Source: a virus (Duplodnaviria > Caudoviricetes). From it: a stretch of 64,000 bases of DNA. The first letter of the stretch is position 1. Each line of letters opens with the position of its first letter. The stretch lies in the IMG/VR virus record IMGVR_UViG_3300037067_006130, positions 1-64,000 of that record; one strand, given 5' to 3'. This document shows positions 29,301 to 63,543 of this stretch, in pieces. The position numbers were made by a program, and so were the translations under genes. Under the pieces are notes generated by a model that was not told the DNA's origin, ran no database searches, and saw only the letters and a program-made list of their open reading frames with translations.

Positions 29301-32300
29301 CTGAGATTGAGATGTTTAAAAGCAGAGATAACTTTATTAAATTCTGCGAAACAAACGCTAAAAGAGGACTTGTTTTCGATACCAGAGCCATTGGCCATGC
29401 TTTTGCCAACGCTGTCTATATCGATCCTAAAAAGGCATTCCAATCAACTCCTGTACATGAGTACGGACATATCTACTATGATTCATTACCCGATTCGAAT
29501 ACATCAAAGAAAATTCTTCGTCAGCTATTCACCGAAAATGGTTTATCTCTAAGCGAGATTGACGAGAATATCGTATTCGAGATAGGTCGTGCCGGAGTAA
29601 AACTAGCAATCAACCAGTTAGAACTATCCAAGAAAAATAAGTTGGAAAAAGAGTTACCTAAGTTTTGGGAAAGCGTTAAAAAGGTGTGGTCTAAACCTAA
29701 GTTTAAAACGAAGGATGATTTCATTAATGATATCGTCGAACAGATGTGGAATCGTGAACCTAACGAGAATGACCGTTTCAATCAACAGGTAGTTCGTAAT
29801 ATGATTGTTGAGCAGGATCCTAATGGTGATCCAACCTTTGAGGAACGAACGGAACCCGATGGTCATAACTCTCTTTGGGAGAAAGGTGGTAAGCGATTAA
29901 TTACTCCTTCAGGATTAAAATCTATCCTTACTAGCGGTAATCGTTTCAACGAAGAGGACTATATCAAGATTAAACTTCGTCAAACACAACTTGGCGATAG
30001 AAAATCGGTAACCCTTGCTGAAACAAAACGGTTAGAAGCCCAAGTTAAATTTATTACCGAAAGTGGTAATGACGTTCATAGTCTTTGTGCTGCTTACTTC
30101 GAGGAAGATCCTTTCATCAGCAAGGCGCTTATCGCTGAAATTTTAAAGAAAAAAGTAGTTGATGCTAATGAGGTTCTAAAAGGATTGGTAAACCTAAGAA
30201 AGTTTATCGAAACTAAATGGGGTAAAAACGTTAAGTACTATGCAGAACATACTTTTGCTAATGTAAAGAATAGACTTGCAGCAAGACCTGACCTAATCAT
30301 TGAGGTTGCACCAAACGAGTTGGTGTATATGGACTTTAAATCCTCAGACGCGTCTTTCTTTAACAAGGATGGTTCTTATAACGGAAAGGTAACTGAAACA
30401 CATGGACTATTTGGAAAGCCATTAGAATTTGTACCAAACACCATCGAGAATCAGCGTAAAGTACAATTCTCATTGACTAAATATATTCTCGAGAATCAAA
30501 ACAACGGTTCTAAGGAAAAGAACAAAATCGTCGGAATGTATGTAGTACCAATTTCCACCAGCCTCAACATTACTCAAAACGAGGATGGTGATTGGAACTA
30601 CACTATCGAGAACGTGGATATGAAGAAACCTATCCCAATAACTCCGATGACTGATCCAGCGATGAGAGGGATTCAGAAGTTTATCGATAGAACTAAAGAC
30701 CTTGGAAAAAACTATTTAAAACTTAAGAAAGAGTTTGGAAATACCCATAACGATTACGATTTGCACAATACTGGCCAGTTAATGGATATGATGGAAAACA
30801 TCACAAACACAACGCTTGATAAGACAAGTATGTTTGATGTGATGAATATTAACAAGACCGGTATAGCGAATATTGAAGATACTCTTTTAAGCATTTCAGA
30901 GGATGAAGGTGGTAAATCTTATCTTCCTTCAGATATTCATGGCGACAAATCGTTACCATTCGAGGAAATACTAGCAGCATCTAATCCTGAGAATCCTTTG
31001 AATAGAAAGAAGCTTGAGGCGAGTATTTCAGATAATGTGGTGGAATCTATAAAGAGAAAAATAGCACCACTAGAGCATGAGAATTGGGTTGAAAATAGTA
31101 CTGGTCACTTCTACGATCCGATTAGTAAGAAAGGATTTGAAGCGATTGGATATAAGGATTTAGTATCAGAGATAACATCTCCGGCCAAAGTATCGGAAGG
31201 TGATTCTATCGGTATTCCTATTCAATATACAGATTCATCAGGGAATAAACGATTAATCACTGAAATCGCTACGATAAAAAGTATTCATCATGATAGTAAA
31301 TCTCCATCTAAATCGTATGTTATCGCTGAGTCAGAGAATGGAGAGTTTATTCGTCTTGATAGTTTAGATCCTCATGATGGTATTCTACGTGAAGTCAAGA
31401 AGTGGATTACTACAAGTGCTTTTGAAAAGAAAAGAATGCAGGAAAGTCTTGATGCGGTAGAGGAAGCAAAACAATTCCCATACCAACCAACAATGGGATA
31501 TCAAGAGGTTTATAAAAGAAGTAGGCATGTAGTTCCTGAAGGGATTGATATGAATACTCCAAAATCAATGCGGGAATATTCTAGATATCTCGAGATGATT
31601 AAGGAATTTAAAACGCTTAACGATTTTTCTGATATCATAAACAAGGAACCAGAACGAATACTAAAGATTTTCAGAGAGATTCAGTTTAATGATAAGAAGT
31701 ACATAACACCTTTCAAAAAACTTATCATTGAATTAATGCATGCCAAGATGCTTGCTGAACGTATTCGTTTTGAGAATAGAGAAGGTCAACGTGCTTTCCC
31801 TTTGATAACAGGAATGCTTGGTGATTGGATGGTTAATCCCGGTGATAAAATTCTTGAACGCTTATTCGGGCAAATCATTACTAATCCTTCATGGAGAATG
31901 ATTCATACCATTCCTAACTACTTCGTAGCAGAAAACGTTGCGATGGACCACATGACTCATGCTCTATACAAAGAAAACTATGAAATGTCAATGGTTAGTG
32001 ATGAGTTGGCTAAATGGAATTCAAAGATTAAGGCAGATCCAATGTTTAGAATGTCAGATATCATTACAATTCGTAATGGTTCTTGGTATCTTAAACATCC
32101 ATCAACCATAAGTGGAAGCGGATTAGATTCTGAATTTGCGAACTATATCTATGAGAAATGGGAGAAATACGAAGGGGTAAGCCATGATGTTACAAAACCT
32201 ATTCGCATACCATCTCAGTCAGCATCAGTTAGTGAGTTAAATGAACGATATGCAAGTTTAAATCTAGGACCATTACTTACCAGAAGAATTAGAAATGCAT

Positions 32301-51789: not shown

Positions 51790-54330
51790 TTAGATTTTAA
51801 AGTTAGGATCATACTTATGATCGGATATCATCTTTTGTTTAATCTTGGAATACTGTCCGTTAAGAACCGTTCCTGATACATCATAACCCCATTCTGATAA
51901 CTTCTTTAGCTGCCAGTACTGGGCAGGTTCATTAGAGATTAGTTCGTTACACATACCCTTAGTGTATTCCACATCGGGTTCCCATAGACCAAGCTTCTTT
52001 AGATAGTCTAGCTGAGCAGGTGTAGCTAAGTCCTGAGTCCACTCACCACCGTAAATCTTTAGTTCTGGTAGTTTAAGTAGGTTGATACGACCATCCTGTT
52101 TAACCTTAGTGTCAATCTTCGCTTCTCTACGCTGCTTCTCGGCAAAGAGAAGTTTCTCTTTATTCTCTTTGGTAACAAAGGTTTTTTCTTTTGCGGTCTT
52201 GCCCTTATCGAGAGTCCATGTATTGATTAGGTTGTGCTTGCCGGAATTGTCTACAAAGTCAAGAATCTTACAGTCATTCAAACCGTACTTCGTTCTAAAC
52301 TCAGGACTTTTTAAACGGCATCCTCTACCAATCGACTGCATGTAGAAAGTTAGCGATTGGGTAGGTCTAGCCATTAGCACAGCACCTACATCTGCGTAAT
52401 CCCATCCTTCAATGAGAATCTGTACGTTCAAAAGCACCTTCGTTTCTTTGCCCCTAAATCGGCTATTTACGCCTTTACGGTCAGGACAAACGTTTTCATC
52501 CGCAACGAGTATTTCGCATGAAATTCCGCTTTGTATGAATGCTTCTCGAAGGTGTATCGCATGAAGGACATCAACACAAAAACCGATAGCCTGTCTATCA
52601 CTACAATATTTCTGATAGGATTCAACGATAAGCTTATTTCTTTCCTTAGTATCAACTAGGTTAGATAACTCATTAATCTTGAAGTCGCCAGCCTGTCGAT
52701 GTACCTTAGAAAGATCTGTTTCTGTCTTAATACGAATACCATCAAGCTCACAAAGAAATCCATCCTCTATCGCTTTGGCGATATTATACTCAAAGGTGAT
52801 ATCGTCAAATAAATCCGCAAGAGATAGTCCATCCAACCGATATGGAGTAGCAGTCCAACCAACGGTTAGCTGTGGTTTAAAATGCTGTACCGCTTTCACC
52901 CATGTACGAGCAAGGTATCGATGACAATTATGTACTAATATATTTTCTACGAAATAGTTGTTATTATCTTCTACTTCCAGATTGTAGACAAAATTGTCTG
53001 AACCACTAAGTTTGGATTTAGATCTACTTCTTCGTTTGTAAATCTTAGAACAGTCCAACCCAACGAATTCAAAACGTTCGTTTTCCGTTTGTCTAAGAAC
53101 TTCCAACGTTTTAACTTGTGAGTTTTTCCATCTATTTCTATCGCAAGTTTCGAGGGAGGATCGGCTAGATCTACTTTGTAATGATATGGCAAACAAGTTT
53201 CTGAAGACGTTTGATTTTTCGTTAGGATCACATATTCCATTGGAAGTTCTGTCAGGTTGTGAATCATTAATTGTTGCTTCGTTAGTTGACCATTTCCTCC
53301 GCGAGAAAGGAATGTTTTTCCTTGCATACTTCGAATCATCTTTGTCTTGGCTTCCGGATTGAACATCGGATTGTTTTTCTTCATTCTTTCCGAACAATCC
53401 CTTTTGTTTACTAGTATCATTGATTTTCTTGCAATTCCCTTGAAGTACTCCTTTTTGCATTTGATAGAACAGCAACCAGAACCTCTTATAACTGAAGCCA
53501 TGAATGTTTTCCGTTTTCTTCCTTCTTTGGCCCAAGACTCCCAACCAAATATTTTTCCACAGTTGTTGCAAACCAAAGTTGGATTTAATCTTAATTTTGT
53601 TTTTCTTGCTTTTTCGCAAATAGAAGAACAAGTTTCTCTGTGTGTCTGAGAATGAAACTTTATTCCACAATTTTTGCATATACCTGAACGTAATCGAGTC
53701 ATATAGATAGCACATTGATGTATGGCAAGTATATGACAAGTATATTTCTTTTGCAAGGCAATAACCTATTTTGTTTATATAAATAGGATGGTTCTTTGTG
53801 CAAGAAAATACTCCAAAATCGTATAGATACTTTGGTTTTTCTTTAACAATCACATTTATTACTTTTTTTAGTTCAATGCGATTTTCTTGATGATTAAAAG
53901 AATGAACATAATCACCAATTTCTATGATTTCTATTGGTTGTTTATCAACCAAGGTTCCTGCGGGAAAACATTCGTCAATCTGTACCAAGGCGAAATGGTT
54001 TGGGCTAATCCTATCCAGTCGGTTAATCAACGTTTGAGGAGAGGCAACCACGACTTTCTTATCAATCTCAAATCGTGATCCCTTGATTACCCCAACGTTC
54101 ATAAACCCATGGAACTTCTCCATGTCTTTCACTGCCTGCTCAATCAACTCTTCGCTATGAGCTAAGAACAGGCTATTCTTAAACTTGGTAGATACGTTGA
54201 CCGCCGCAATTCGCTTGCCCGTTCCGGTAGCTTGTATAACTAACTGTCGTTTAAGCCCTTTCTCCTTAAAAGCGGTGTGTATCGCCTTAAAGCAGGCAAC
54301 CTGATATGGTCGCCAATTTACGTCAATCAT
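51790..54330 (-). CDS. SF2 (Res/DEAD-like) helicase precursor containing an intein
   Basis: RPYQ, ATGTGK, motif II DE|CH split by the intein, TATP, NVQILIEGWD, MARPT, YMQSIGRG.R; mature protein 498 aa. Confidence 0.92.
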   Translation of the reverse strand: MIDVNWRPYQVACFKAIHTAFKEKGLKRQLVIQATGTGKRIAAVNVSTKFKNSLFLAHSEELIEQAVKDMEKFHGFMNVGVIKGSRFEIDKKVVVASPQTLINRLDRISPNHFALVQIDECFPAGTLVDKQPIEIIEIGDYVHSFNHQENRIELKKVINVIVKEKPKYLYDFGVFSCTKNHPIYINKIGYCLAKEIYLSYTCHTSMCYLYDSITFRYMQKLWNKVSFSDTQRNLFFYLRKSKKNKIKIKSNFGLQQLWKNIWLGVLGQRRKKTENIHGFSYKRFWLLFYQMQKGVLQGNCKKINDTSKQKGLFGKNEEKQSDVQSGSQDKDDSKYARKNIPFSRRKWSTNEATINDSQPDRTSNGICDPNEKSNVFRNLFAISLQSRSSRSSLETCDRNRWKNSQVKTLEVLRQTENERFEFVGLDCSKIYKRRSRSKSKLSGSDNFVYNLEVEDNNNYFVENILVHNCHRYLARTWVKAVQHFKPQLTVGWTATPYRLDGLSLADLFDDITFEYNIAKAIEDGFLCELDGIRIKTETDLSKVHRQAGDFKINELSNLVDTKERNKLIVESYQKYCSDRQAIGFCVDVLHAIHLREAFIQSGISCEILVADENVCPDRKGVNSRFRGKETKVLLNVQILIEGWDYADVGAVLMARPTQSLTFYMQSIGRGCRLKSPEFRTKYGLNDCKILDFVDNSGKHNLINTWTLDKGKTAKEKTFVTKENKEKLLFAEKQRREAKIDTKVKQDGRINLLKLPELKIYGGEWTQDLATPAQLDYLKKLGLWEPDVEYTKGMCNELISNEPAQYWQLKKLSEWGYDVSGTVLNGQYSKIKQKMISDHKYDPNFKI
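52927..53970 (-). mobile_element. Intein (348 aa) inserted in helicase motif II
   Basis: Starts CFPAGT (Cys1 at 53968-53970), block B CTKNHPI, ends VYNLEVEDNNNYFVENILVHN, followed by Cys+1. Removal restores DECH. Confidence 0.93.
52971..53702 (-). CDS. DUF559/Vsr-like endonuclease encoded in an alternative frame inside the intein
   Basis: Frame differs by 1 from the helicase/intein. Two CxxC...C zinc-ribbon motifs, NUMOD-like RMKKNNPM, YKVDLA...LAIEIDGKTH...DKRKTNVLNSLGWTVLRF. ATG 53702 (TTG 53756 possible). Confidence 0.85.
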   Translation of the reverse strand: MTRLRSGICKNCGIKFHSQTHRETCSSICEKARKTKLRLNPTLVCNNCGKIFGWESWAKEGRKRKTFMASVIRGSGCCSIKCKKEYFKGIARKSMILVNKRDCSERMKKNNPMFNPEAKTKMIRSMQGKTFLSRGGNGQLTKQQLMIHNLTELPMEYVILTKNQTSSETCLPYHYKVDLADPPSKLAIEIDGKTHKLKRWKFLDKRKTNVLNSLGWTVLRFTNEEVDLNPNLVVQTILSTIWK

Positions 54331-54721
54331 GTTTACTTGCTAGTTTAAAGGATGGTATGAAGTACTCGTGTTTGCTCTCTGGCCATCCTTGGATTGTTTT
54401 ATGCCTGTCTTGGAGAAGGGGAATTAACTCCTTCCATTTCACATGGGAAATAAAGCACCGCCAAATATTCTCATCCTTTACCCATCTTGGATGGTTCGGA
54501 TGAATATCTGTACGAACGTTAAACTTGTATTTTAGCTTCTCTTTCCCATTATGATCTCCAATACGAACAGAGCACATTCGGCTATCCTTAAATCGGATAT
54601 ATACGCTTCCGGTGTTAGCGACATGCCATATATACGATTCGATACCGACCTCATCAAGAGCAGCGACTATCTTATTCGCAATACTCTCATGAGTTTCTTT
54701 GATCTGTTTATGCTTTTTCAT
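54323..54721 (-). CDS. Hypothetical protein
   Basis: GSVYIRF...VRIGDH motif; overlaps the helicase start. Confidence 0.55.
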   Translation of the reverse strand: MKKHKQIKETHESIANKIVAALDEVGIESYIWHVANTGSVYIRFKDSRMCSVRIGDHNGKEKLKYKFNVRTDIHPNHPRWVKDENIWRCFISHVKWKELIPLLQDRHKTIQGWPESKHEYFIPSFKLASKHD

Positions 54722-55025
54722 CGGTAATTGGTTCAGGTTTCCAACATCCAGCTTGCTTTAGTTCCTCGATATGCACTCCTATTCGACCTTCAATGACATA
54801 GAGGTAGTTCTTAAAATCTTTACGCATAAACCCTTTCGCCGTTCTACGACCAAGGTTGTTAAAGATAGTGGCTCGTTTCTGAATGGAGAGTAAGTCGTCA
54901 ATAAACTTTATCTCCATCATTATCTCTGCAGGATCTTCGGTATCTTCACTAAGAACTTGTACCATGATAGCAACTTCCTCCTTAGTCATTACCTCAATAC
55001 TTCCAAACTTATTCTTGTCTTTCAT
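54708..55025 (-). CDS. Hypothetical protein
   Basis: 105 aa, ATGA-coupled. Confidence 0.5.
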   Translation of the reverse strand: MKDKNKFGSIEVMTKEEVAIMVQVLSEDTEDPAEIMMEIKFIDDLLSIQKRATIFNNLGRRTAKGFMRKDFKNYLYVIEGRIGVHIEELKQAGCWKPEPITDEKA

Positions 55026-55606
55026 TTTAAGTTTAAGAATTCATCAATCATTCTAACTTCATCAACGTAGACAGTAAGGTGCCCTTTACCATCTTTACGG
55101 TTGCGAAATGCGTAGGCGTTAGGTGTCCAAGTCTTATGGAATAGACACTTCTTCATTGCTCCCGATCCGAATGGTACGATTTTTTGCACGTAGATTTTGT
55201 ACTTATCGTACACCCATTTCTGGTTAAGCGGGAATCGCATATCATTCTTATTCCCTCCGAAAGCGCCTTTTACATCAACCACTGATATTGGTTTCTCGTG
55301 GAACATCTGGCACTCAAACAGCCCTTCGGCTGCATTATCCCCAATAAACTTGACCAGCTTAATATCAAAGGCTTTCTGCCCCCAATGAATCTTGAAGTCA
55401 GCCTTGTACTCGTGGTCGTTAAGGAGTAGGTTCTTAATCTCTTTCTTCCCTTTCTTCTCAGGGAACGCTATTTCTGGTGAGAGTTTAAAAGGAATTGGTT
55501 GATGGGTATATCCCTCTACCAATTCCTCTTTCATTGCTTCATCCAGCCATGCCGCGAAGTACTTTTCCTCGTCGGATACTTCTAGGGTTACTATTTTGGA
55601 TTGCAT
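55022..55606 (-). CDS. PD-(D/E)xK nuclease, DUF1064/resolvase-like
   Basis: SDEEKYF...HEYKADFKI...VVDVKG motif arrangement. Confidence 0.65.
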   Translation of the reverse strand: MQSKIVTLEVSDEEKYFAAWLDEAMKEELVEGYTHQPIPFKLSPEIAFPEKKGKKEIKNLLLNDHEYKADFKIHWGQKAFDIKLVKFIGDNAAEGLFECQMFHEKPISVVDVKGAFGGNKNDMRFPLNQKWVYDKYKIYVQKIVPFGSGAMKKCLFHKTWTPNAYAFRNRKDGKGHLTVYVDEVRMIDEFLNLK

Positions 55607-55743
55607 GTCTCACCACATTGGGTACAGGTTAGCATTCCATCTAGGGTTGTCGTCGGTGCATCACAGCAGTCACTATTCGTAATTTGGATGTCGACATCTT
55701 CAGGTGGAAAATCTTTTAGATCTTCTTCATCTTCTCTTGCCAT
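55591..55743 (-). CDS. 50-aa acidic zinc-ribbon protein (not in ORF track)
   Basis: MAREDEEDLKDFPPEDVDIQITNSDCCDAPTTTLDGMLTCTQCGETCNPK*; overlaps the next start. Confidence 0.55.
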   Translation of the reverse strand: MAREDEEDLKDFPPEDVDIQITNSDCCDAPTTTLDGMLTCTQCGETCNPK

Positions 55744-55778
55744 TGTCGTTAATTTAATATTATTCAAGGGTTAAATAA

Positions 55779-56246
55779 TTAAACGTGTTTTCGGACAGCC
55801 ATCCAGTAGCGAACAACATCAAGTCGATACTTTAACGGTTGTTTCTCGTACCCTTCACCTCCATTCCAAAGGTATGCACCCTTTTCAAGGTCATACTTCG
55901 GATTATGCTTATCCATGAAGGTAAAGAACATCTCAATCGATTTTAGACTATCCCTTCGGTCTGCAAGGAAGTATTTCTGATATCCAACAATCTCATTACA
56001 GGCTCTCACCATGATTGGTCTTATCTGAAGTATGCCTACCGCATTCTCTTTATAGTACGCCTGTAGTGCAGCTTTCTTGCTCTTTGGTCGTTCTGCAAGA
56101 TAGGTTATCCTAAGTAGGGTTTCCTTACGCTGCGGAACTATTGATATTGGTTTTGATTCCCATACGATAAACGGTTCTAAACCATTCGGGGCATAGCATA
56201 ATAACGCTATTGGGATTAATAGTAGTAGTAAGCATAGTCTTTTCAT
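55779..56246 (-). CDS. Signal-peptide-bearing lysozyme-like (SLT-like) protein
   Basis: MKRLCLLLLLIPIALLCYA signal; AVGILQIRPIMV...DRRDSLKSIEMF...WNGG lysozyme-fold motifs. Confidence 0.65.
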   Translation of the reverse strand: MKRLCLLLLLIPIALLCYAPNGLEPFIVWESKPISIVPQRKETLLRITYLAERPKSKKAALQAYYKENAVGILQIRPIMVRACNEIVGYQKYFLADRRDSLKSIEMFFTFMDKHNPKYDLEKGAYLWNGGEGYEKQPLKYRLDVVRYWMAVRKHV

Positions 56247-56303
56247 TACGTTTAGATTAGTTAATACTATGGTTCTGGCGTTAGCCGTTGGTTATTCTAG
56301 CAA

Positions 56304-56334
56304 CAAATTTACACAATAAATCGTATATACCAAA
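56304..56334 (-). promoter_or_regulatory. Bacteroidota sigma-70-type promoter (TTTG-N19-TAAATTTG)
   Basis: Exact consensus: -33 at 56331-56334, -7 at 56304-56311, 19-nt spacer; 58 nt before ATG 56246. Confidence 0.8.
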
Positions 56335-56363
56335 AATAAGGGATGCAAAATTGCACCCCTTAT
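56332..56363 (-). terminator. Rho-independent terminator ending the PRTRC-containing operon
   Basis: Stem ataagggatgcaa / ttgcaccccttat (one G-U on the - strand) followed by TTTTT on the - strand; overlaps the -33 box of the next promoter. Confidence 0.75.
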
Positions 56364-56364
56364 C

Positions 56365-56718
56365 CTAAAGTTTATGTAAATGGTTTAACATCATCTTCTT
56401 CGGGTTTTGCTCCATTAGCTCTAACATTTGATCTGCAGTAAACAAAAGATCATCCGTGTAGATACAAGCAATCTTGTGACTACTTCCTTTACTCGGTGAT
56501 GGATCGTGTTCTGCGTAAAGTGACCATCGGTACGGAACTTCTCCGAATTCAAGGACAATGTGCTTGTCCTCTTTTACTGCCAGGATAAACGAGATCATTG
56601 GTGAGCTAAAAGGGGCGTAAACTATACACCCTTTCTCTTTTAGCTCAAATGCCATTCCTCTTAGTGTTGTATCCACTCGTTTTAAACGTAGCTGATACGC
56701 TGGAAAGAAATCGCTCAT
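56365..56718 (-). CDS. Hypothetical protein
   Basis: 117-aa ORF ending just before the terminator. Confidence 0.55.
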   Translation of the reverse strand: MSDFFPAYQLRLKRVDTTLRGMAFELKEKGCIVYAPFSSPMISFILAVKEDKHIVLEFGEVPYRWSLYAEHDPSPSKGSSHKIACIYTDDLLFTADQMLELMEQNPKKMMLNHLHKL

Positions 56719-56916
56719 TTCTCTTCCTCTTCCATGAATTCATCAGCCATTTCAAATGCCTGTTTCATGGTTATCCCATGATGGTGCGTAAACATTTCTA
56801 AAGCGGTACTATACCGCTTTAGAAACACCACATTCATGATCCTCAGTTTCTCCGAATGAACCGTAATTCTTATAGGCTATCGGGAATGCTGGTTCTAATC
56901 CTTTCTTGTTGCTCAT
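56715..56916 (-). pseudogene. Small AFP-motif phage gene with +1 frameshift at a perfect palindrome
   Basis: MSNKKGLEPAFP...GVSK then STALEMF...AFEMADEFMEEEEK* in the +1 frame. Length is 202 nt (one extra base); both ends are ATGA-coupled. Confidence 0.55.
56795..56825. repeat. Perfect 14-bp inverted repeat with 3-nt loop
   Basis: tttctaaagcggta-cta-taccgctttagaaa. Confidence 0.95.
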
Positions 56917-57050
56917 CGTTTTTCCTCCTTTTCTTTTACATCTTTCCAACCGATTTCTCGGTATAATCGTGCTGCTTCATGAGCAACACAAAAGTCAGTG
57001 GTATTGACTAGTTCACTACCACTGACGATTACAAGGTATCTCGTTTCCAT
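56913..57050 (-). CDS. 45-aa hypothetical protein (not in ORF track)
   Basis: METRYLVIVSGSELVNTTDFCVAHEAARLYREIGWKDVKEKEEKR*; directly follows the ThiF stop and is ATGA-coupled to the next ORF. Confidence 0.5.
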   Translation of the reverse strand: METRYLVIVSGSELVNTTDFCVAHEAARLYREIGWKDVKEKEEKR

Positions 57051-57779
57051 CTATACCGTATTAATATTCATTTCACCTAGATTAAAGTAAAGCTGATTGT
57101 AGGGTAGGTAAAGGTTACAGATAAAGTCCTTAATCATCCCTGCAGCAAAGGTGGCCATGTGTAGGTTAATAAATAAATCCTGCTTAGCTAGCGCTTCGAA
57201 TACAGAACAACTTGGGCCTTGTTCCTCTTTACTTCCAATCATATCCTCCATGAAGGGGAATACATCGAATACATGGGTTGCCCTACGTTTGGCAATCTCA
57301 TCTGAGAATTGTCCAAAGATAATCTGGCCAAAATCACGACCATTCCCAATATCCATCCAGTGCCTAAATAACGGTACTTTCTGAATCATTCTTCGTGCGG
57401 GAATATTATCCACGCATGAAATGGTTATCCCCTCATCATCATCATCCCAATGACCGATATACTTTGCGACCTCGCTATCAAACATCACCGGAAAGTACTC
57501 CCACTGAAATCCGTAGACATGGTTAATCGATTCAATCAGCGCTTGACACTTCATCTGATCAACCTGGCCATGAGAAAATGGTTGACGACCAACATTGGTT
57601 GAGGATATCTTATCCCCATCGAAGGCCCAAACTTTTATTCCTTTATAGCCTAATCGGATTATCGTTTCATTCACTGATACCAATCGGTTGATTAGATGTG
57701 CTCCTGTTCCACCTGTACCTATCACGACTACGTTGATAAGCATCCGTTCGGGTAGTAAATCACCTGCGTATATTTTCAT
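57051..57779 (-). CDS. PRTRC system ThiF-family (E1-like) protein
   Basis: VIGTGGTG, FDGDKISSTNVGRQPF, SCVDN..AR, WMDIGNGRDFGQ, GPSCSVFEALAKQDLFIN. Confidence 0.92.
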   Translation of the reverse strand: MKIYAGDLLPERMLINVVVIGTGGTGAHLINRLVSVNETIIRLGYKGIKVWAFDGDKISSTNVGRQPFSHGQVDQMKCQALIESINHVYGFQWEYFPVMFDSEVAKYIGHWDDDDEGITISCVDNIPARRMIQKVPLFRHWMDIGNGRDFGQIIFGQFSDEIAKRRATHVFDVFPFMEDMIGSKEEQGPSCSVFEALAKQDLFINLHMATFAAGMIKDFICNLYLPYNQLYFNLGEMNINTV

Positions 57780-58468
57780 CGTATGCTCGTTTTAAGTTGA
57801 AATGGTTCCATATCCCTCTGCTTATAGGTAAAGGATTTTGCCTTTGCCCATTTGAATCCAGTTGCATCAGCATGACTATTGAATGAGGATGCCCAAAACG
57901 CATCGTAGTAAGCATCCATCGTTTCACCAATGGTCATACCATCCTTTAACGTTACAGAACCTCCCATACAAACATTACCACTCATACCAATATTGGGTAG
58001 ATTGCAACCAACGAACCCTGCTCCTTTACGTTCGTAGACGTACAGCGAACTACCCTCGATTAGATAGTAGAACTTAGGAACATTCTTCAGCAGTTTCTTT
58101 TCGCCTTTGTAGTATATCCACTTTTCCTTTGCAGGTTCATCGACGAACATGATTGACTTTAAACTTCTCGAGAGGAAGAGAACAGGAAATCGGAATATGA
58201 GCATCTGCTCAGGAAGAAAATTCTTCTCCTTCTCCTGCCTGACCACTCGTAGAATGTTCTTGGCAAATCGTACCATAAAGTTAATCGTTACCGGAACGAA
58301 ATTACCAAGTAGGCCATGCTTTACTTCAGCGATCTCATAGTACTCTTTTCCGTCTGTTCTCGCGAAACAAGCCATAACATACTTAAGTTTTACCTTCGTG
58401 GATATTAGTTCTGATGCCGATTCACCGAGATACTGTTTATAGTTATATTCTTGTTGGGCTTTTTTCAT
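57776..58468 (-). CDS. PRTRC system protein B (prokaryotic E2 family D-like)
   Basis: LPNIGMSGNVCMG...YYDAFWASSFNSH matches the NV...G.VC.G...F..S.F.H pattern; ATGA-coupled to ThiF. Confidence 0.8.
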   Translation of the reverse strand: MKKAQQEYNYKQYLGESASELISTKVKLKYVMACFARTDGKEYYEIAEVKHGLLGNFVPVTINFMVRFAKNILRVVRQEKEKNFLPEQMLIFRFPVLFLSRSLKSIMFVDEPAKEKWIYYKGEKKLLKNVPKFYYLIEGSSLYVYERKGAGFVGCNLPNIGMSGNVCMGGSVTLKDGMTIGETMDAYYDAFWASSFNSHADATGFKWAKAKSFTYKQRDMEPFQLKTSIR

Positions 58469-59933
58469 TGCTATACAGCTCGTTAAAATTATTCATGAAT
58501 ACTAGTGCTGATTCCGAAAAGACATCAATGTACTTCCAAATTTTTTTGTACTCCTGGTTTATCTTTTCGTACCGATATGTACCGTTGATCTTTCTAATCT
58601 GAAATCCATCCGCACATATTTCCTCAAACAGGTCAGCGCCATCCTTCCAAATCATATCGTGGTAATGCTCCATTCTCCAATCATCGTAGTAGCTCGATTC
58701 GTAGAATATGTTATAGTACTGACGAATTCTATCGCGAAAGAATGTTAAAGAACATGCCGATTCGTCTATCCCACTATCATCCTCCTGACTCTCGATTAGA
58801 AAGTAGTGAAGTAGTTGTCTATCCTTACGAACCTTTTCAATCTCTTCAACAAGTAAGGCGGTTAGATTCTCTACCCTAACATTCATGACTAGGTTGGCCT
58901 TCATATGGGTTAACCATTTTACTAAAAATCCACCTATTCGGTAGAAGTTCTCGTAATACTCCAAGCGTAACCCTTTAGAGAGCATTGTAGTCATTTTCTG
59001 TTGGGCTTTGTAGACAAACCTATTATTCGTCACCATCTCGCCATACTGCCCTGTAATCATTTGGTAGCTGGTATGATCCTGCTCACTTCTACATCGTAAT
59101 AGGTAGATGAAACTGCTATCGATATCATTATCATCATTCCCTTCCAATTCCTCTAGCCATTCCCAAAAGTCAGTCTCATCGAAGTCAACACGCTCTTTGG
59201 CCTCTTTGATTAGCTCTATCATCTTGAGCATATTCGTCTGACAACCATCGTCATCTATACCCATCTCCATCTCCATCAGCTCACTTTGCCGTTGGTCGCT
59301 AGAGAAATCGTAGATATAGGCAATGTATTCGATTGCCCAGGTAATCAGCTTAACTATTTTCTTGTAGGAATACCCTGATTCGAGCATTGATTTTCGGACT
59401 AGATCATCCTGAGCCGGAACATCCTCGTAGACGGATAGTAGTATTTTAGTACTACACCTAAAGACATCCTCTATACCCATTAGGTCAACCTTATACTCGG
59501 CTTTAAGGTACATCTCGATATCCTTGCCAACACTCGCTTCGTAATGAGTAAGCATATCTGTCGGAATGTGTTTCTTGATTAGCTCTGAAAAAAACTGAAT
59601 GTACTCCTGAACGTTTAACTTACTCGGATCAACCTTAGAGGTTACCAAGTCTTTTTCAGTAGGACAAACTAAACGGTATACCTCGTAAACAAAGATGGCT
59701 GCTTCTCGCCATCCTTTCGGGGTGTGTAGCTCTAAACGAGAACCCGCTAGATTATACTCTAACGGGTTCCATTTTATCTTACCACCAATAAGTTTTCTTA
59801 TATCATCGTGCCAACCGGGTACATCCCGCCAGCCTCCCGAATTGGGTACTTGCTTACTTCGGGAAGTTCCAATCGGCTTTCTAATCCTTTTGAAAACTCT
59901 CTTGGCGATTTCTTGTTCTGTTGCCTCGCCCAT
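58443..59933 (-). CDS. Large acidic helical protein at the PRTRC protein F position
   Basis: 496 aa between the protein C and protein B homologues; assigned by synteny only. Confidence 0.45.
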   Translation of the reverse strand: MGEATEQEIAKRVFKRIRKPIGTSRSKQVPNSGGWRDVPGWHDDIRKLIGGKIKWNPLEYNLAGSRLELHTPKGWREAAIFVYEVYRLVCPTEKDLVTSKVDPSKLNVQEYIQFFSELIKKHIPTDMLTHYEASVGKDIEMYLKAEYKVDLMGIEDVFRCSTKILLSVYEDVPAQDDLVRKSMLESGYSYKKIVKLITWAIEYIAYIYDFSSDQRQSELMEMEMGIDDDGCQTNMLKMIELIKEAKERVDFDETDFWEWLEELEGNDDNDIDSSFIYLLRCRSEQDHTSYQMITGQYGEMVTNNRFVYKAQQKMTTMLSKGLRLEYYENFYRIGGFLVKWLTHMKANLVMNVRVENLTALLVEEIEKVRKDRQLLHYFLIESQEDDSGIDESACSLTFFRDRIRQYYNIFYESSYYDDWRMEHYHDMIWKDGADLFEEICADGFQIRKINGTYRYEKINQEYKKIWKYIDVFSESALVFMNNFNELYSNEKSPTRI

Positions 59934-59960
59934 CGTTTAAAGTGTCGTCTTGGATTAAAA

Positions 59961-60179
59961 CTATCCTTTTTCGCCTGCAACTGTTCGGAATTCATAGTCA
60001 ACTTCGCCATTCTTCCCTTGTGTTGGACCGATTACGGTTGCGTTTGTAATTGATGGGTGCTTTCCCGACAGAATCTTTTTCACCTCAATGACTGAACCTC
60101 CGGGTAAAGGATCTTTCTCGGTAATCTTTGTCTTACCGTCATTGATGATGAAGTTTCTTACTGCTCTTTGTAGTGCCAT
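59961..60179 (-). CDS. PRTRC system protein C (ubiquitin-like beta-grasp)
   Basis: 72 aa; DPLPGGS..EVKKILS..HPSITNATVIGP...YEFRTVAGEKG with the characteristic C-terminal GxKG. Confidence 0.88.
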   Translation of the reverse strand: MALQRAVRNFIINDGKTKITEKDPLPGGSVIEVKKILSGKHPSITNATVIGPTQGKNGEVDYEFRTVAGEKG

Positions 60180-60182
60180 AGT

Positions 60183-60965
60183 TTATCCCCAGTTTTCTTC
60201 TGTTTGGTCGGTTTCTGTTGCTTCGGTAGTTTCTTTAGGTTCATCAGGGTTGGATTCGTTCTGGTTGAACAACTCGTTCTTAGGAGTAGTATCAACAGCT
60301 TTACCCTTATTTACTGTAGTCTTGGTGGTCGTCTTTGCGGCATCCTCCTTCTTTACATCAGGTTTCTTCGCATCAGCCACTTTCTTCTCGGCTATCTTAA
60401 CAGCTTCCTTCTCGAGAGATATCTTCTGCTCGATTAACGCTTGAAGATCGGCAACCTTAGCCTTAACGGAAACGAATTCCTTAATCTGAGGTAGCACGTT
60501 CATCATGATTTCCTGAGCAGTACCGAACATGGTCACATCAATACCAGGTTTAATCGTGATGAGCAAATCAATCCTCTTGGGTTGTGTAGCACTTGGAGTA
60601 AGCGTTAACTTCTCGATGATATCACATACCGATTCCCAACCTGATAGGTCGAAGATAACCCCAACTCCGGGTTTTATTGCAGCATTCCCTTTCTCTTCGG
60701 TTGGGCCTTTAATGACTTCATTGCTCTTTTCCACAACTTTGTTCTGTTCTGTACTTGCAGCAACTTCGCTGAAGTATAGTTCAAAAGAAGATTGTTTCAG
60801 CTTTACTTGAGTTACACCATCAATGATGGTATACCCGAAGCCAATAGCATCGTTAATCTTTTCCTTTTCAAAACCATACTTCTTACCGATGGTTAACTTG
60901 TTTACGGGCGCGTTAGCGTCATCCGAATGTGAGTTTAGAACACAAAATCCTTTTACAGGTGCCAT
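60183..60965 (-). CDS. PRTRC system protein E-like, with extra N-terminal domain
   Basis: Central DVTMFGTAQEIMMNVLPQI resembles the protein E GT.EELD motif; low-complexity K/T/E tail; directly upstream of protein C. Confidence 0.6.
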   Translation of the reverse strand: MAPVKGFCVLNSHSDDANAPVNKLTIGKKYGFEKEKINDAIGFGYTIIDGVTQVKLKQSSFELYFSEVAASTEQNKVVEKSNEVIKGPTEEKGNAAIKPGVGVIFDLSGWESVCDIIEKLTLTPSATQPKRIDLLITIKPGIDVTMFGTAQEIMMNVLPQIKEFVSVKAKVADLQALIEQKISLEKEAVKIAEKKVADAKKPDVKKEDAAKTTTKTTVNKGKAVDTTPKNELFNQNESNPDEPKETTEATETDQTEENWG

Positions 60966-60983
60966 AAATTTATTTGTTTGTTA

Positions 60984-61241
60984 TTAGAATGGACAATCAT
61001 CTCTTGGACCTTGAATAACCAATCTTTGCCAAAAGTCCAAGGTCGTTATATCTACCTTTGGCTTCTCTACTATCTTGCCTGTTCTCGCGAACGTCTTTGC
61101 TTCCTCGTCTAAGGCAAGCATGGATTTTCCGATAGCCCATTTGACATAATTTTTGCCATCTGAGCTATCGAGAACTTCCTTCATCGTTTTCCCTTTAAAC
61201 TTTCCGAAGAAGAAAACATCATCAAGGGAATAGATTTTCAT
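60984..61241 (-). CDS. DUF3820 / ExoX-C-terminal-like small protein
   Basis: FFFGKFKGKTMKEV...NYVKW motif. Confidence 0.65.
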   Translation of the reverse strand: MKIYSLDDVFFFGKFKGKTMKEVLDSSDGKNYVKWAIGKSMLALDEEAKTFARTGKIVEKPKVDITTLDFWQRLVIQGPRDDCPF

Positions 61242-62227
61242 TACATGAACTCTTGGTCAGGTGCTACTTCGTTTCCTGTTGCTACGAATGCCTGATTCGT
61301 TAAATCCTCAACTGGTGTGAAATAGGTTTGATTAGCCATTTCCATCAGTACTGGATATTCCTCAAGTATCGCATCGTACCATACTTTAGGGGCATGGTAG
61401 ATATTCACCATATCCACATCGGTTGGCTTGTACAGGTTAGTACCTATATTGTATAGATCCCAAACAGTACCCAATCTCGAATCCTCCTTCAACCGCTTGT
61501 TGATATCCTGAGTTAGCACGCTCATTTGAGTCATAGTAAATGGCGCTACAACGCTACCATAGGCTTGCTCAACCGATTTACGGTATAGGTTACCTACCAA
61601 ACGGTCTACCTCTGATACCTTATCAATCTCCACGCTCTTCATTCCTTCAATCATTCTAAGGTCGAATTGCTCCTTCTCTGCCATTGTATCAAGCCAGTGG
61701 TTTAACACCTCAAGCATTTTATCGAAAGGAACCTTATTCTGACCATAGGTAGTCATTAGGTTCTTACCGAATACGCACATGTTTGAGCATATCCTAACGT
61801 TTTGTCCAAAGGCCACAAGCACACCGTTCTTATTGAACGATAAAGCGATTGAGGTATTGGTATCACCTTCCCTTGCAGGGTTCACGTTAATCTTGGTGAT
61901 AAGCTGGTTAAACAGCCACTTTGATATCGGAGTATTCTCTGCAGTGTAGATACCACGTTCTGCTGAGGTAAGAATCTGTTGTGATTCTGACTTCTGCACG
62001 TAGATATTATCCAACGCATGAGGAATTCCTCTTTCGCCAAGCTGGTTGGTAATCCTATCAATCAGCTCCCATGATTGTATGGGGCGAGAAATGATTTCCC
62101 TACCATTCTGCATACGCACGAGTTGGCTCTCGCGAAGGTGGTCCAGCGAGATTAGACTCGCCTTGCCATCACCTTCAAGTTTGTAAATAATTTCACTATT
62201 CTCCATTGGTCTCTTGAATTGATTCAA
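61241..62227 (-). CDS. DUF932-like protein
   Basis: VAFGQNVRICSNMCVFG...TVWDLYNIGTNLYK pattern. Confidence 0.65.
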   Translation of the reverse strand: MNQFKRPMENSEIIYKLEGDGKASLISLDHLRESQLVRMQNGREIISRPIQSWELIDRITNQLGERGIPHALDNIYVQKSESQQILTSAERGIYTAENTPISKWLFNQLITKINVNPAREGDTNTSIALSFNKNGVLVAFGQNVRICSNMCVFGKNLMTTYGQNKVPFDKMLEVLNHWLDTMAEKEQFDLRMIEGMKSVEIDKVSEVDRLVGNLYRKSVEQAYGSVVAPFTMTQMSVLTQDINKRLKEDSRLGTVWDLYNIGTNLYKPTDVDMVNIYHAPKVWYDAILEEYPVLMEMANQTYFTPVEDLTNQAFVATGNEVAPDQEFM

Positions 62228-62239
62228 ATGTGTAAATAA

Positions 62240-62605
62240 TTATACGTCTAACTTCGGATTTGGAATGTACGATACGTCAAACCCATCAATATTCACTCGC
62301 TTGAAAGTAGGTTGAGGGTATGCTCGTTCGTTTTCGAGCTGAGAACGTTTTACTACGAGCAGTTGATGTACGATGAAATTTAGGTTATGATGCCTATTCG
62401 TTTTCCAGCACATATTCTTGAATAGACGATAGTACTCTTCCGCAATATACCACTGCTCTACTGTTTTACAACTAACGATTACCTTTTGCGCCTTGTTAAA
62501 CGCTAGATTCATTTCCTGATCCTTCTTAGAGTAATCTTCGGTTGGTTGGTTTTTGGAACACATATTCTTCCCTTTCCTGTTTTTTGAGAAGCGCCCAGTT
62601 ATCAA
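62240..62605 (-). CDS. Hypothetical protein
   Basis: KAQKVIVSCKTVEQW..AEEYYRLF pattern; the true start may be internal (MCSK or MNLA). Confidence 0.5.
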   Translation of the reverse strand: MITGRFSKNRKGKNMCSKNQPTEDYSKKDQEMNLAFNKAQKVIVSCKTVEQWYIAEEYYRLFKNMCWKTNRHHNLNFIVHQLLVVKRSQLENERAYPQPTFKRVNIDGFDVSYIPNPKLDV

Positions 62606-62774
62606 TGATGTATGATTTTAGATTATCGGGTAGCTTTCCTTGTTCGTATAGGAATATTAAGTACCTAGCGGGCACATTTGCTAGTTTCTTGCCCTTGTGC
62701 GTACCGAAGGTGATGATACTCTCATCAGTCAATTCCTCCTGTATCGGTTTGTGGTCGCTCAGTCTTGTTGACAT
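62526..62774 (-). CDS. DUF3820-like small protein (second copy)
   Basis: ITFGTHKGKKLANVPARYLIFL motif. Confidence 0.75.
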   Translation of the reverse strand: MSTRLSDHKPIQEELTDESIITFGTHKGKKLANVPARYLIFLYEQGKLPDNLKSYIIDNWALLKKQEREEYVFQKPTNRRLL

Positions 62775-63543
62775 CTAAATGCTTTTTTAATAGTTTACTA
62801 AAATCCTTCTGTTCATCCTCTTCCAGCATGGTCAGCCAGTACCACTTATCGTTAAACGCTTTCTTATACTTCGGTGACAGATTCTTATCCTTCTTGATAA
62901 GGTCATTGAAGTTATAAAACGCGAATACGAGCAGTTCAGCTAAATCAGATTCGCTACACTTCTCAGGGAATAGCATATACCGATTATTGACGATACCCAC
63001 CTCGTAGTAAACCTCTCCATGAGTAAAGTAGGGTACGATATCCATGACAGAAACTCGTTCACCTGCAATCTTCTTGATATCAGCAATCTTCTTGGTGAAA
63101 TACATGTGTTCTACGAAAGCGGCTGATTTTCGGGTTTCATCCTTGAATAGCTCGAATCCTATCAGCTTCAGGATATCCCAATGCTTAAAGTTTTCAAGGT
63201 TCATCAATGGGTAATCCCGGATAAACTGGGCAACGGTACGAACTTCTTTAAGCATCCTTTCGAAGTGTTTTAAGGCGTTCTTTTCGTTGAGGGCGGTAAT
63301 GTAAAGGAATGAGTCTTTTGTGATAATCTTGCCCTTTATCATCGGCCCTTTGGTGGCAAAGTCAAACTCTACCTGAGCATCATAAGTCGCCCTCGATATC
63401 TCTCCATCCGCAAGGTTAAGACAGAATAGGCTATGACCTGGATAGACATTCTTTGTTCCGACAAAGGTGTACTGCCGAAACTTCTCCATTTCGGACACCA
63501 CTTCGATGTCCGTATGGAGTTGTTCTAGTTGATCTAATTTCAT
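62725..63543 (-). CDS. Hypothetical protein
   Basis: 272-aa ORF; start overlaps the KTSC stop. Confidence 0.55.
   Translation of the reverse strand: MKLDQLEQLHTDIEVVSEMEKFRQYTFVGTKNVYPGHSLFCLNLADGEISRATYDAQVEFDFATKGPMIKGKIITKDSFLYITALNEKNALKHFERMLKEVRTVAQFIRDYPLMNLENFKHWDILKLIGFELFKDETRKSAAFVEHMYFTKKIADIKKIAGERVSVMDIVPYFTHGEVYYEVGIVNNRYMLFPEKCSESDLAELLVFAFYNFNDLIKKDKNLSPKYKKAFNDKWYWLTMLEEDEQKDFSKLLKKHLDVNKTERPQTDTGGID

Follow-up and report, generated by a model that had tools for sequence, protein, structure and literature searches.

A divergent PRTRC-type ubiquitin-like conjugation cassette in a distant crAss-like phage

Why an apparently virulent crAss-like phage should carry what looks like its own set of genes for ubiquitin-like (Ubl) protein conjugation is the question raised by positions 57051-60965 of the window analysed here (the first 64,000 nucleotides of IMG/VR record IMGVR_UViG_3300037067_006130, which is 86,412 bp long in full). 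Several bacterial E1/E2/Ubl systems (CBASS Cap2 and Bil, with a similar role predicted for Bub) were recently shown to act in phage defence. The PRTRC gene set (ParB-Related, ThiF-Related Cassette; NCBIfam TIGR03734-03742) corresponds to what Iyer, Burroughs and Aravind classed in 2006 (PMC1779556) as operon type 6d. They predicted Ubl transfer for it and noted a "rapidly diverging alpha-helical protein" among its products; no biochemical or genetic data on any PRTRC cassette were found in the literature searched. The present locus is a real, divergent and stripped-down variant of this known gene set and, judging from its sequence, very probably encodes a genuine E1/E2/Ubl conjugation cassette.

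Composition of the cassette

The locus consists of five tightly packed genes, and all five open reading frames, which the first-pass annotation had described as coupled genes on the minus strand, were verified at the coordinates below, listed with three flanking genes.

55022..55606, minus strand: 194-aa protein downstream of the cassette, found again close to the PRTRC cassettes of other viral records
57051..57779, minus strand: E1, PRTRC-type ThiF-family adenylating enzyme, 242 aa (TIGR03736)
57776..58468, minus strand: E2, Prok-E2_D / PRTRC_B-like UBC-fold protein, 230 aa (PF14460)
58443..59933, minus strand: 496-aa protein, fast-evolving and probably helical, in the PRTRC_F (alpha-hel2) position (placed by position; no family match)
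59961..60179, minus strand: Ubl, 72-aa Prok_Ub / PRTRC_C-like beta-grasp protein ending in GEKG (PF14454)
60183..60965, minus strand: 260-aa protein in the PRTRC_E position (placed by position, with weak profile and motif likeness)
60984..61241, minus strand: 85-aa protein with an ExoX-like C-terminal motif (PF20600), flanked by the E-position and 328-aa genes
61241..62227, minus strand: 328-aa protein directly upstream of the cassette, whose homologues precede it in related phage contigs too (no family match)

Read from the E-position gene through the Ubl, 496-aa and E2 genes to ThiF, the gaps are 3, 27, -26 and -4 nt, so that the E2 gene overlaps the ThiF gene by 4 nt; the ThiF gene directly adjoins the next open reading frame. 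The order E-C-X-B-ThiF is common to approximately 150 loci and to the RefSeq-annotated PRTRC example of Ralstonia phage Dina (gp02-gp07, E-C-F-B-A-ThiF), which bears out the earlier identification of a PRTRC-type cassette in canonical order. The family profiles agreed with that identification in part: ThiF scored above its PRTRC cut-off, the PRTRC_B and PRTRC_C models scored below theirs, and PRTRC_E and PRTRC_F found no match. Nothing in PHROGs matched any cassette protein. Sigma-70 promoter-like sites were below shuffled expectation, by a method that does not cover Bacteroidota promoters, and terminator-like sites were within about 1.4 sd of shuffled expectation.

The E1 is the most clearly assigned of the five by its PRTRC model (170.2 bits against TIGR03736, PRTRC_ThiF, cut-off 144.75). 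It retains all 21 invariant columns of an alignment of 26 sequences. It has the nucleotide loop GTGGTG, Asp54/Asp56, Arg65, Lys77, Asp124 and the invariant PSCS cysteine (Cys191, 57207-57209), and its catalytic residues are invariant among relatives at 39-91% identity. The best PDB matches of its profile are the adenylation domains of eukaryotic E1 enzymes, and there are also weak matches to ThiF models of the thiazole pathway. A single-protein scan of viral contigs found no close ThiF relatives.

The E2 matches PF14460 (Prok-E2_D) at 32.7 bits (GA 25) and TIGR03737 (PRTRC_B) at 18.7 bits, below the equivalog cut-off of 131.45. The GNVCMG cysteine singled out by the first-pass annotation is Cys167 (57968-57970); it falls in register with the VCxG motif of the family and His199 with its F-[ST]-H motif, and comparison with 80 homologues indicates that the invariant residues P131, P158, N159, C167 and G169 are retained. 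The expected E2 fold was recovered both by the above-GA profile match and by VIA-align, which, given an AF2 model of medium quality (pLDDT 64), returned approximately 30 E2 enzymes among its top matches (Z 4.2-6.0, residues 96-215). Foldseek searches of the PDB with the same model gave nothing at E<=0.001 and only weak UbcH7 rows, and a PDB sequence profile search gave no match for this protein.

The Ubl, for which a beta-grasp match had likewise been anticipated, scores 36.3 bits against PF14454 (Prok_Ub, GA 25) and 31.4 bits against TIGR03738 (PRTRC_C, cut-off 45.95, thus below it). Its predicted GEKG terminus, ending in Gly72 (59964-59966), is in register with the GxKG end of the family, found in 69 of 70 viral and approximately 68 of 72 genomic loci. 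No JAB peptidase (PF14464, PF01398, TIGR03735) was matched in the 86,412-bp record, although TIGR03735 was silent also in all control genomes and so is uninformative here, and no ParB_N was found in the record, which may be incomplete. The first-pass annotation was right that both genes are missing from the cassette, but this is no novelty of the phage: the JAB-less, ParB-less form is normal in Bacteroidota elements and accounts for about half of the viral records. Of 70 cellular-genome loci measured, mostly from Bacteroidota, 60 have the E2 gene directly next to ThiF and no protein A; of 50 viral records with PRTRC, 29 have no ParB, among them the five nearest to this one. Across approximately 150 loci, cassettes without JAB have a Ubl that stops exactly at GxKG and those with JAB have one that runs on past KG, which supports the earlier argument that a Ubl already ending in glycine needs no maturation protease and so fits the missing JAB gene.

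The two remaining proteins match neither PRTRC_E, PRTRC_F nor any other family even at E<=10, are not matched by position-derived HMMs for canonical E and X, and have no usable match in the ESM Atlas. The labels "E" and "F-like" previously given to them thus lack significant HMM support and stand on gene position and weak profile or motif resemblance. The 496-aa protein has only 4 relatives among 1.84 billion representatives and is homologous to its counterpart in one related phage contig, L002 (hhalign 94%); a five-sequence profile of the phage clade aligned with the canonical middle-gene family over 138 C-terminal columns (hhalign 47%, E 2e-4; control families <0.5%). Its AF2 model, made with one close homologue, was unusable (pLDDT 33). 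The sole detected homologue of the 260-aa protein is also encoded by L002. Similarity of the 260-aa protein to PRTRC_E is weak (-2.6 bits against a custom HMM of the N-domain, 8.5 bits for the L002 counterpart; hhalign 56% over 40 columns only), and its architecture of globular part, Lys/Glu-rich stretch, acidic tail with a NELF motif (60267-60278) and C-terminal WG resembles that of canonical E proteins, as does its xLF motif.

Among E proteins, the motif [QE]-G-S-[LM]-F is present in 85 of 106 distinct sequences, compared to about 5 expected in shuffled tails. The E-protein motif resembles the consensus for binding the beta sliding clamp, QL[S/D]LF or QxxLF (PMC12309361). An association of Q-type motifs with an adjacent clamp gene (DnaN) was considered and rejected, as motif type does not track adjacency.

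The carrier phage and the distribution of the cassette

By its sequence matches the carrier genome is a distant crAss-like phage. Its capsid protein matches PF23898 (Crass_capsid) at 28.2 bits (GA 27), and its 708-aa TerL matches 59 INPHARED records at 23-25% identity, of which the 12 listed are crAss-like phages or known relatives and the rest bear organism names consistent with this; the relationship is a distant one. The genome carries a 5676-aa open reading frame, and no integrase was found in the 86-kb record; these results accord with its earlier description as an apparently lytic crAss-like phage. Megablast of 20 kb against GenBank phages and a tblastn search with the capsid protein returned nothing.

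The cassette lies among DNA-replication genes in the non-structural, replication-gene arm of the genome. At other loci its neighbours include DnaN, DnaB, ResIII helicases and topoisomerase III. The replication module including the cassette is collinear in a related phage contig (G001) and shared with another (G034). Homologues of the 328-aa protein precede the cassette in L002 (E 5e-103), L052 and L056 and are syntenic in G001 and G034; the 85-aa protein (24 bits against PF20600, below the GA of 26.5) has a 46%-identical counterpart in the same place in G001; and the 194-aa protein clusters with proteins of 11 other viral PRTRC loci, making 12 loci in all, where the median distance from ThiF is about +6.9 kb, with matches in G040, G018, G034 and G001. 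The constant position of the cassette in the replication module, seen also in related phage contigs, speaks for a functional system that was passed on vertically.

In the ThiF tree the phage sequence groups exclusively with viral sequences (successive nodes supported at 0.993, 0.937 and 0.973), some of them from records with crAss-type capsids, and none of the 80 genomic sequences included falls within this clade. A survey of Crassvirales, suggested by the first-pass annotation, found no cassette among deposited genomes, and detected it in at least 4 crAss-capsid IMG/VR records and in approximately 134 IMG/VR contigs. The PRTRC/6d family as a whole extends to hundreds of Bacteroidota genomes and more than 100 viral contigs; among 80 IMG/VR records with PRTRC there are 26 proviruses, and CTn-like islands harbour many of the genomic loci. 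Phage-borne cassettes, including those of temperate phages, are already annotated in GenBank and mentioned in papers.

Proposed pathway and competing explanations

Taken as a whole, the locus probably represents a minimal working Ubl-conjugation pathway of the JAB-less PRTRC type, inherited within a virus lineage, with a possible role in establishment or replication. The ThiF-type E1 would adenylate the free C-terminal Gly72 of the Ubl, for which no protease would be required because the Ubl is translated in its finished form; the E1 would probably hold the Ubl as a thioester on Cys191 and hand it on to Cys167 of the E2, which would join it to a lysine of the target. The two other products, the probably helical one of 496 aa and the one of 260 aa in the E position, are likely to be target-choosing factors or target partners, the former possibly a specificity factor or E3-like partner. 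The lineage in which the cassette appears to have been passed on, inside the replication-gene arm, is exclusively viral and counts crAss-like phages among its members. From this context the most likely role of the cassette may be the tagging of a host or element protein that matters when the phage genome is established and replicated after infection of a Bacteroidota cell, a suggestion that is made tentatively.

That E1 and Ubl tag no protein and serve only for adenylation or as a sulfur-carrier system, in the manner of ThiF/ThiS or MoeB/MoaD, or that the cassette is a decaying passenger, is highly improbable. The E1 is indeed a minimal 242-aa enzyme of the ThiF/MoeB type, to which the thiazole-pathway matches would be suited, and the cassette has neither an E3 nor a deconjugating enzyme; but a cysteine-bearing UBC-fold E2 is linked in 80 of 81 loci, sulfur-transfer partner genes are absent, and the invariant catalytic residues together with the conserved synteny argue against decay. 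A counter-defence function, as put forward in the first-pass annotation, in which the phage would tag or inactivate a host immune protein or interfere with Ubl-based immunity (Bil, CBASS Cap2), is unlikely, although it would suit the position of the cassette in the non-structural arm, the very fast evolution of the accessory proteins and the sharing of the cassette by ICEs, plasmids and phages, as is the case for anti-restriction genes. An arms-race signature may also be seen in a Phocaeicola vulgatus prophage, whose PRTRC protein B is reported to be a recurrent hotspot of mutation, linked by the authors of that study to a diversity-generating retroelement (bioRxiv 2026), but no template/variable (TR/VR) repeat of the cassette was found in the present genome. 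No known anti-defence family was matched, nothing indicates that the hosts carry Bil or CBASS, and PADLOC detected only superfamily-level likeness to Cap2 E1-E2 and BilD (12-20 bits, in the nucleotide-binding region of the E1), with no matches for the E2, Ubl or accessory proteins.

Improbable, too, is the converse explanation that the element turns its Ubl system on competing phages or other mobile elements. Characterized bacterial E1/E2/Ubl operons (Bil, which tags a phage tail protein, and type II CBASS) are antiphage and Bub is predicted to be so, and proviruses and CTn-like islands are among the carriers; yet the cassettes are located in replication modules rather than defence islands, PADLOC has no model for them, and a phage lineage that has no integrase and seems to be virulent has kept the cassette. 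A more specific proposal, for which the probability is similarly small, is that PRTRC performs replisome-directed tagging, with protein E docking on the beta sliding clamp by means of a disordered tail that carries the [QE]-G-S-[LM]-F motif, while E1 and E2 place the Ubl on the clamp or a clamp-bound protein. The DnaN gene adjoins E in 29 of 160 loci, but Q is present in only about one quarter of the E-protein motifs, and this phage has KNELF only and no DnaN of its own. If true, mobile elements would have their own equivalent of PCNA ubiquitination or SUMOylation, with which phages, ICEs and plasmids might take over or protect replication.

The retention of a complete JAB-less cassette in the replication module of an apparently virulent crAss-like lineage suggests that it is the mobile element that benefits from the system. 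The phage cassette offers a compact five-gene test case for PRTRC/6d, and from the conserved GxKG end a mono-glycine remnant (+57 Da) is to be expected on the lysines of targets digested with trypsin, which would be a direct mass-spectrometry handle on the targets.

Comparison with known systems

Similar to PRTRC/6d cassettes, the phage locus has, by gene position, the order E-C-F-B-(A)-ThiF, an E1 above the PRTRC_ThiF cut-off, a Prok-E2_D E2 with a cysteine and a downstream histidine, a Prok_Ub Ubl with a GxKG end, and a fast-diverging, probably helical protein between Ubl and E2. Unlike them, it has no JAB/DUF2016 protein A, no ParB and no C-terminal tail on the Ubl; the proteins in its E and F positions are 260 and 496 aa long (versus approximately 200 and 380) and unrecognised by the family models; and its carrier is an apparently virulent crAss-like phage instead of a plasmid, ICE or temperate phage. 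The JAB-less PRTRC cassettes of Bacteroidota (CTn-like islands and proviruses; loci L003-L162) have an identical five-gene architecture in which the E2 gene abuts ThiF, a Ubl ending exactly at GxKG, and adjacent DNA-replication or DNA-processing genes, whereas the phage ThiF is only 29-39% identical to theirs and the accessory proteins have no significant alignment. With Bil (BilABCD) and Bub (6E/DUF6527) the cassette shares the combination of E1, E2 and Ubl with no E3, the E2 being thought to choose the target, and with type II Bub the usual absence of a JAB peptidase. The E1 architecture differs (multidomain in Bil; E1 fusions and oxyester chemistry in Bub), as do the E2 families, and those systems are chromosomal defence operons, whereas the PRTRC cassette described here is borne by a phage.

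Gene content and core enzymes of the cassette

All five minus-strand ORFs that the first-pass annotation had read as a PRTRC (ParB-Related, ThiF-Related Cassette) ubiquitin-like conjugation cassette are present, with spacings of 3, 27, -26 and -4 nt in order, inside a continuous minus-strand gene run that extends from about 62.2 kb down to a helicase gene at 51.8 kb. The motifs quoted for them were also verified: the ubiquitin-like protein (Ubl) ends in K71-G72, the E2 contains GNVCMG with Cys167, and the E1 contains GTGGTG as well as PSCS with Cys191.

Genes of the cassette and its flanks (window coordinates)
61241-62227, minus strand: 328-aa protein flanking the cassette; recurs beside the PRTRC cassettes of L002, L052 and L056
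60183-60965, minus strand: E-position protein, 260 aa; ORF confirmed
59961-60179, minus strand: Ubl (C), 72 aa; ORF confirmed, Prok_Ub match
58443-59933, minus strand: F-position protein, 496 aa; ORF confirmed
57776-58468, minus strand: E2 (B), 230 aa; ORF confirmed, Prok-E2_D match
57051-57779, minus strand: ThiF E1, 242 aa; ORF confirmed, TIGR03736 match
55022-55606, minus strand: 194-aa protein flanking the cassette; family recurs beside PRTRC cassettes, in 12 viral loci with this phage counted

The PRTRC cassette corresponds to type 6d among the operons of Iyer et al. 2006 (PMC1779556), who list as its components a Ubl, a JAB protein and an E1, together with an E2 that has a conserved Cys followed downstream by a His, and a "rapidly diverging alpha-helical protein". 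Ralstonia phage Dina has the gene order E-C-F-B-A-ThiF in its RefSeq annotation, and its proteins are recognized by Pfam as DUF2016 plus Prok-JAB (A), Prok-E2_D (B), Prok_Ub (C) and, weakly, alpha-hel2 (F). At least 576 genome stretches match, the closest among the matches listed being overwhelmingly from Bacteroidota. The loci fetched for comparison (80 from IMG/VR and 80 from species-representative genomes, designated by L numbers) nearly all have the same layout: E of about 200 aa, C of 69-73 aa, a gene of about 380 aa, B of about 233 aa and ThiF of about 257 aa.

The ThiF protein of the phage scores 170.2 bits against TIGR03736 (PRTRC_ThiF, cut-off 144.75), the E2 passes Pfam Prok-E2_D (32.7 bits, GA 25) and the Ubl passes Prok_Ub (36.3 bits, GA 25); the E2 and Ubl also match NCBIfam PRTRC_B and PRTRC_C, respectively, each under the model cut-off. 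ThiF retains all invariant columns of a 26-sequence alignment, including Asp54/Asp56, Arg65-Gln66, Lys77, Asp124 and Cys191-Ser192, and the top solved-structure relatives of its profile are eukaryotic E1 adenylation domains. The E2 retains Pro131, Pro158-Asn159, Cys167 and Gly169, which are invariant in 80 E2 homologues, and its His199 corresponds to the family motif F-[ST]-H, offset by one residue. With the AF2 model of the E2 (pLDDT 64), Foldseek returned weak UbcH7 rows and nothing stronger, and an exhaustive VIA-align search ranked about 30 E2 enzymes first (Z 4.2-6.0, with about 95 residues aligned in the region 96-215 of the model), with bacterial BubB and a CBASS E2 lower in the ranking. 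The two folds whose absence was to refute the earlier reading were thus both found, the E2 fold by HMM and by fold search, and the beta-grasp fold of the Ubl at the level of the Pfam family model. Judging from these families and their invariant residues, Gly72 of the Ubl would be adenylated, the Ubl would form thioesters on Cys191 of the E1 and Cys167 of the E2, and it would then be transferred to lysine.

Proteins in the E and F positions

The 260-aa and 496-aa proteins have no match to PRTRC_E, PRTRC_F, alpha-hel2 or any other family model, even at E<=10, and searches of PHROGs and the ESM Atlas were blank for both. Of 1.84 billion representative proteins, four are related to the 496-aa protein, and adding these to the profile brought its counterpart in L002 into detection (hhalign 94%). 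The resulting five-sequence profile aligns with the canonical middle-gene family (between Ubl and E2) over the C-terminal third of that family (47% probability, E 2e-4), compared with less than 0.5% for each of three unrelated control families. The 260-aa protein has a single detected homologue, in L002, and a faint alignment to the PRTRC_E N-domain. Its build is that of canonical E, in which a small globular portion is followed by a stretch rich in Lys and Glu and by an acidic tail that contains an xLF motif. The two are positional counterparts of E and F, and their homology to them is suggestive but unproven; the labels "E" and "F-like" given previously hold for gene position and faint similarity, but not at the level of family models. 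Both phage-clade E-position proteins (60183-60965, minus strand, and L002:3251-4321) have an acidic run followed by a C-terminal W-G (an ENWG/EDWG pair), an ending that canonical E proteins lack.

The phage genome and descent of the cassette

The IMG/VR record, of which the window covers the first 64 kb, is 86.4 kb long. "Apparently lytic crAss-like phage" is a reasonable designation for it because of its capsid, terminase and 5676-aa ORF and because a search of the genome for an integrase or resolvase found none; its kinship to crAss-like phages is remote, however, and it is not a closed genome. A 505-aa protein (2451-3968) narrowly passes Pfam Crass_capsid (28.2 bits, GA 27), and the large terminase (708 aa, record positions 83000-85126) has hits at 23-25% identity in 59 phage records of GenBank; the 12 that were listed belong to crAss-like phages or to known relatives of these, and the organism names of the other 47 are consistent with that. 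The 5676-aa single ORF of the structural arm (window 17354-34384, plus strand) is of a kind found in crAss-like phages. The primase-helicase is nearest to those of Bacteroidota phages. A Shine-Dalgarno-like sequence precedes none of the 17 start codons examined on the minus strand of 54000-63000, which fits a Bacteroidota host. An intein (Pfam Intein_splicing, residues 441-468) interrupts a ResIII/SNF2-type helicase (window 51790-54330, minus strand), splitting the helicase motifs to either side; the counterparts in L002 and L052 match just 375-385 residues or so of this protein.

A tblastn search with ThiF of 50,697 GenBank phage records matched six records, corresponding to five distinct phages or fragments (temperate Burkholderia and Ralstonia phages and two faecal fragments), with no named crAss-like phage among them. 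Culturable phages with a PRTRC cassette include Ralstonia phage Dina and Burkholderia phage BgVeeders33. ThiF relatives are encoded on 134 IMG/VR contigs; the best 80 records include 26 proviruses and four with a Crass_capsid match (L061 and L078 over the cut-off, L045 and L023 under it). In a tree of 170 ThiF sequences rooted on Dina, the phage protein belongs to a seven-member clade (support 0.993) together with L002, four metagenomic proteins (51-91% identity) and one more at 39%; L023, L024 and L061 form the sister group (0.937), and the 14-member clade that encloses both (0.973) contains zero cellular-genome sequences. L078 and L045 belong to a second clade made up of viral sequences only. 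The 40-kb viral contig of L078 encodes both a protein with a strong Crass_capsid match (185.7 bits, G078:C1:21565-22908) and a cassette of this second clade, indicating that at least two crAss-like lineages carry PRTRC cassettes. Collinearity between the L002 record and the phage genome extends over 44.9-69 kb of the latter and takes in the cassette, and the L052 record has in common with the phage the replication module, ThiF, both flanking proteins (328 aa and 194 aa) and the terminase (45% identity). The ThiF clades, this collinearity and the module shared with L052 argue that this phage group has long kept the cassette in its replication arm by vertical descent.

Cassette composition, possible roles and known systems

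No match to JAB or to ParB_N was found anywhere in the 86,412-bp record. A cassette without JAB and ParB is the rule, not the exception, since 60 of 70 genomic loci have the E2 gene and ThiF directly adjoining each other and ParB_N is missing from 29 of 50 cassette-carrying viral records. In 69 of 70 viral loci, and in about 68 of the 72 genomic ones, GxKG is the very end of the Ubl; tails of 30-65 residues beyond KG occur in the JAB-bearing Dina and in Syntrophorhabdus and Nitrospirae loci, where the gap between E2 and ThiF is big enough for a JAB-type gene. This pattern supports the argument of the first-pass annotation that no protease is required to mature a Ubl already made in finished form, as a tendency and not a rule, because L093 has the gap and yet a finished Ubl.

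Neighbours of the cassette in viral loci include DnaN, ResIII and DnaB helicases, DUF6633 proteins and integrases, and those in genomic loci include topoisomerase III and DUF3945/DUF4099 proteins, which are typical of conjugative transposons. Many Bacteroidota genomic loci have a hybrid histidine kinase and a sigma-54-type response regulator directly downstream of ThiF (e.g. L044:12244-15868), an arrangement reminiscent of the rteA-rteB regulators of CTnDOT-type elements. In the phage, the flanking 328-aa and 194-aa proteins may be parts of an extended cassette module. The context favours a role for the cassette in tagging linked to establishment or replication, to which counter-defence and exclusion are both live rivals; PADLOC has no model for the cassette and gave weak E1 superfamily matches at most.

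The motif [QE]-G-S-[LM]-F occurs in the tail of 85 of 106 distinct PRTRC_E proteins (about five expected in shuffles). Written out as [GN]-[QE]-G-[STN]-[LM]-F-[GED], for which the counts are likewise 85 of 106 against about five in shuffles, the motif lies near residue 160 in an otherwise low-complexity tail (loci L003-L162; e.g. L044:4943-5899 and L004:5190-5831). The tail motif resembles the beta-clamp-binding motif QxxLF (PMC12309361), and docking of E proteins on the beta clamp through it is a possible lead. DnaN often adjoins PRTRC cassettes, and the E motif type had no correspondence with DnaN adjacency in the loci compared. The phage E-position protein has KNELF as its sole such motif, and no DnaN of the phage's own was found in its genome.

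No study on the function of PRTRC or of type 6d turned up in a literature search. Bil, Bub and type II CBASS belong to operon families other than PRTRC. The PRTRC cassette of a Burkholderia gladioli prophage has been interpreted as a partition module (PMC13366799), and PRTRC protein B of a Phocaeicola vulgatus prophage is a recurrent mutational hotspot, which its authors tie to a diversity-generating retroelement (bioRxiv 10.64898/2026.10.01.756045).
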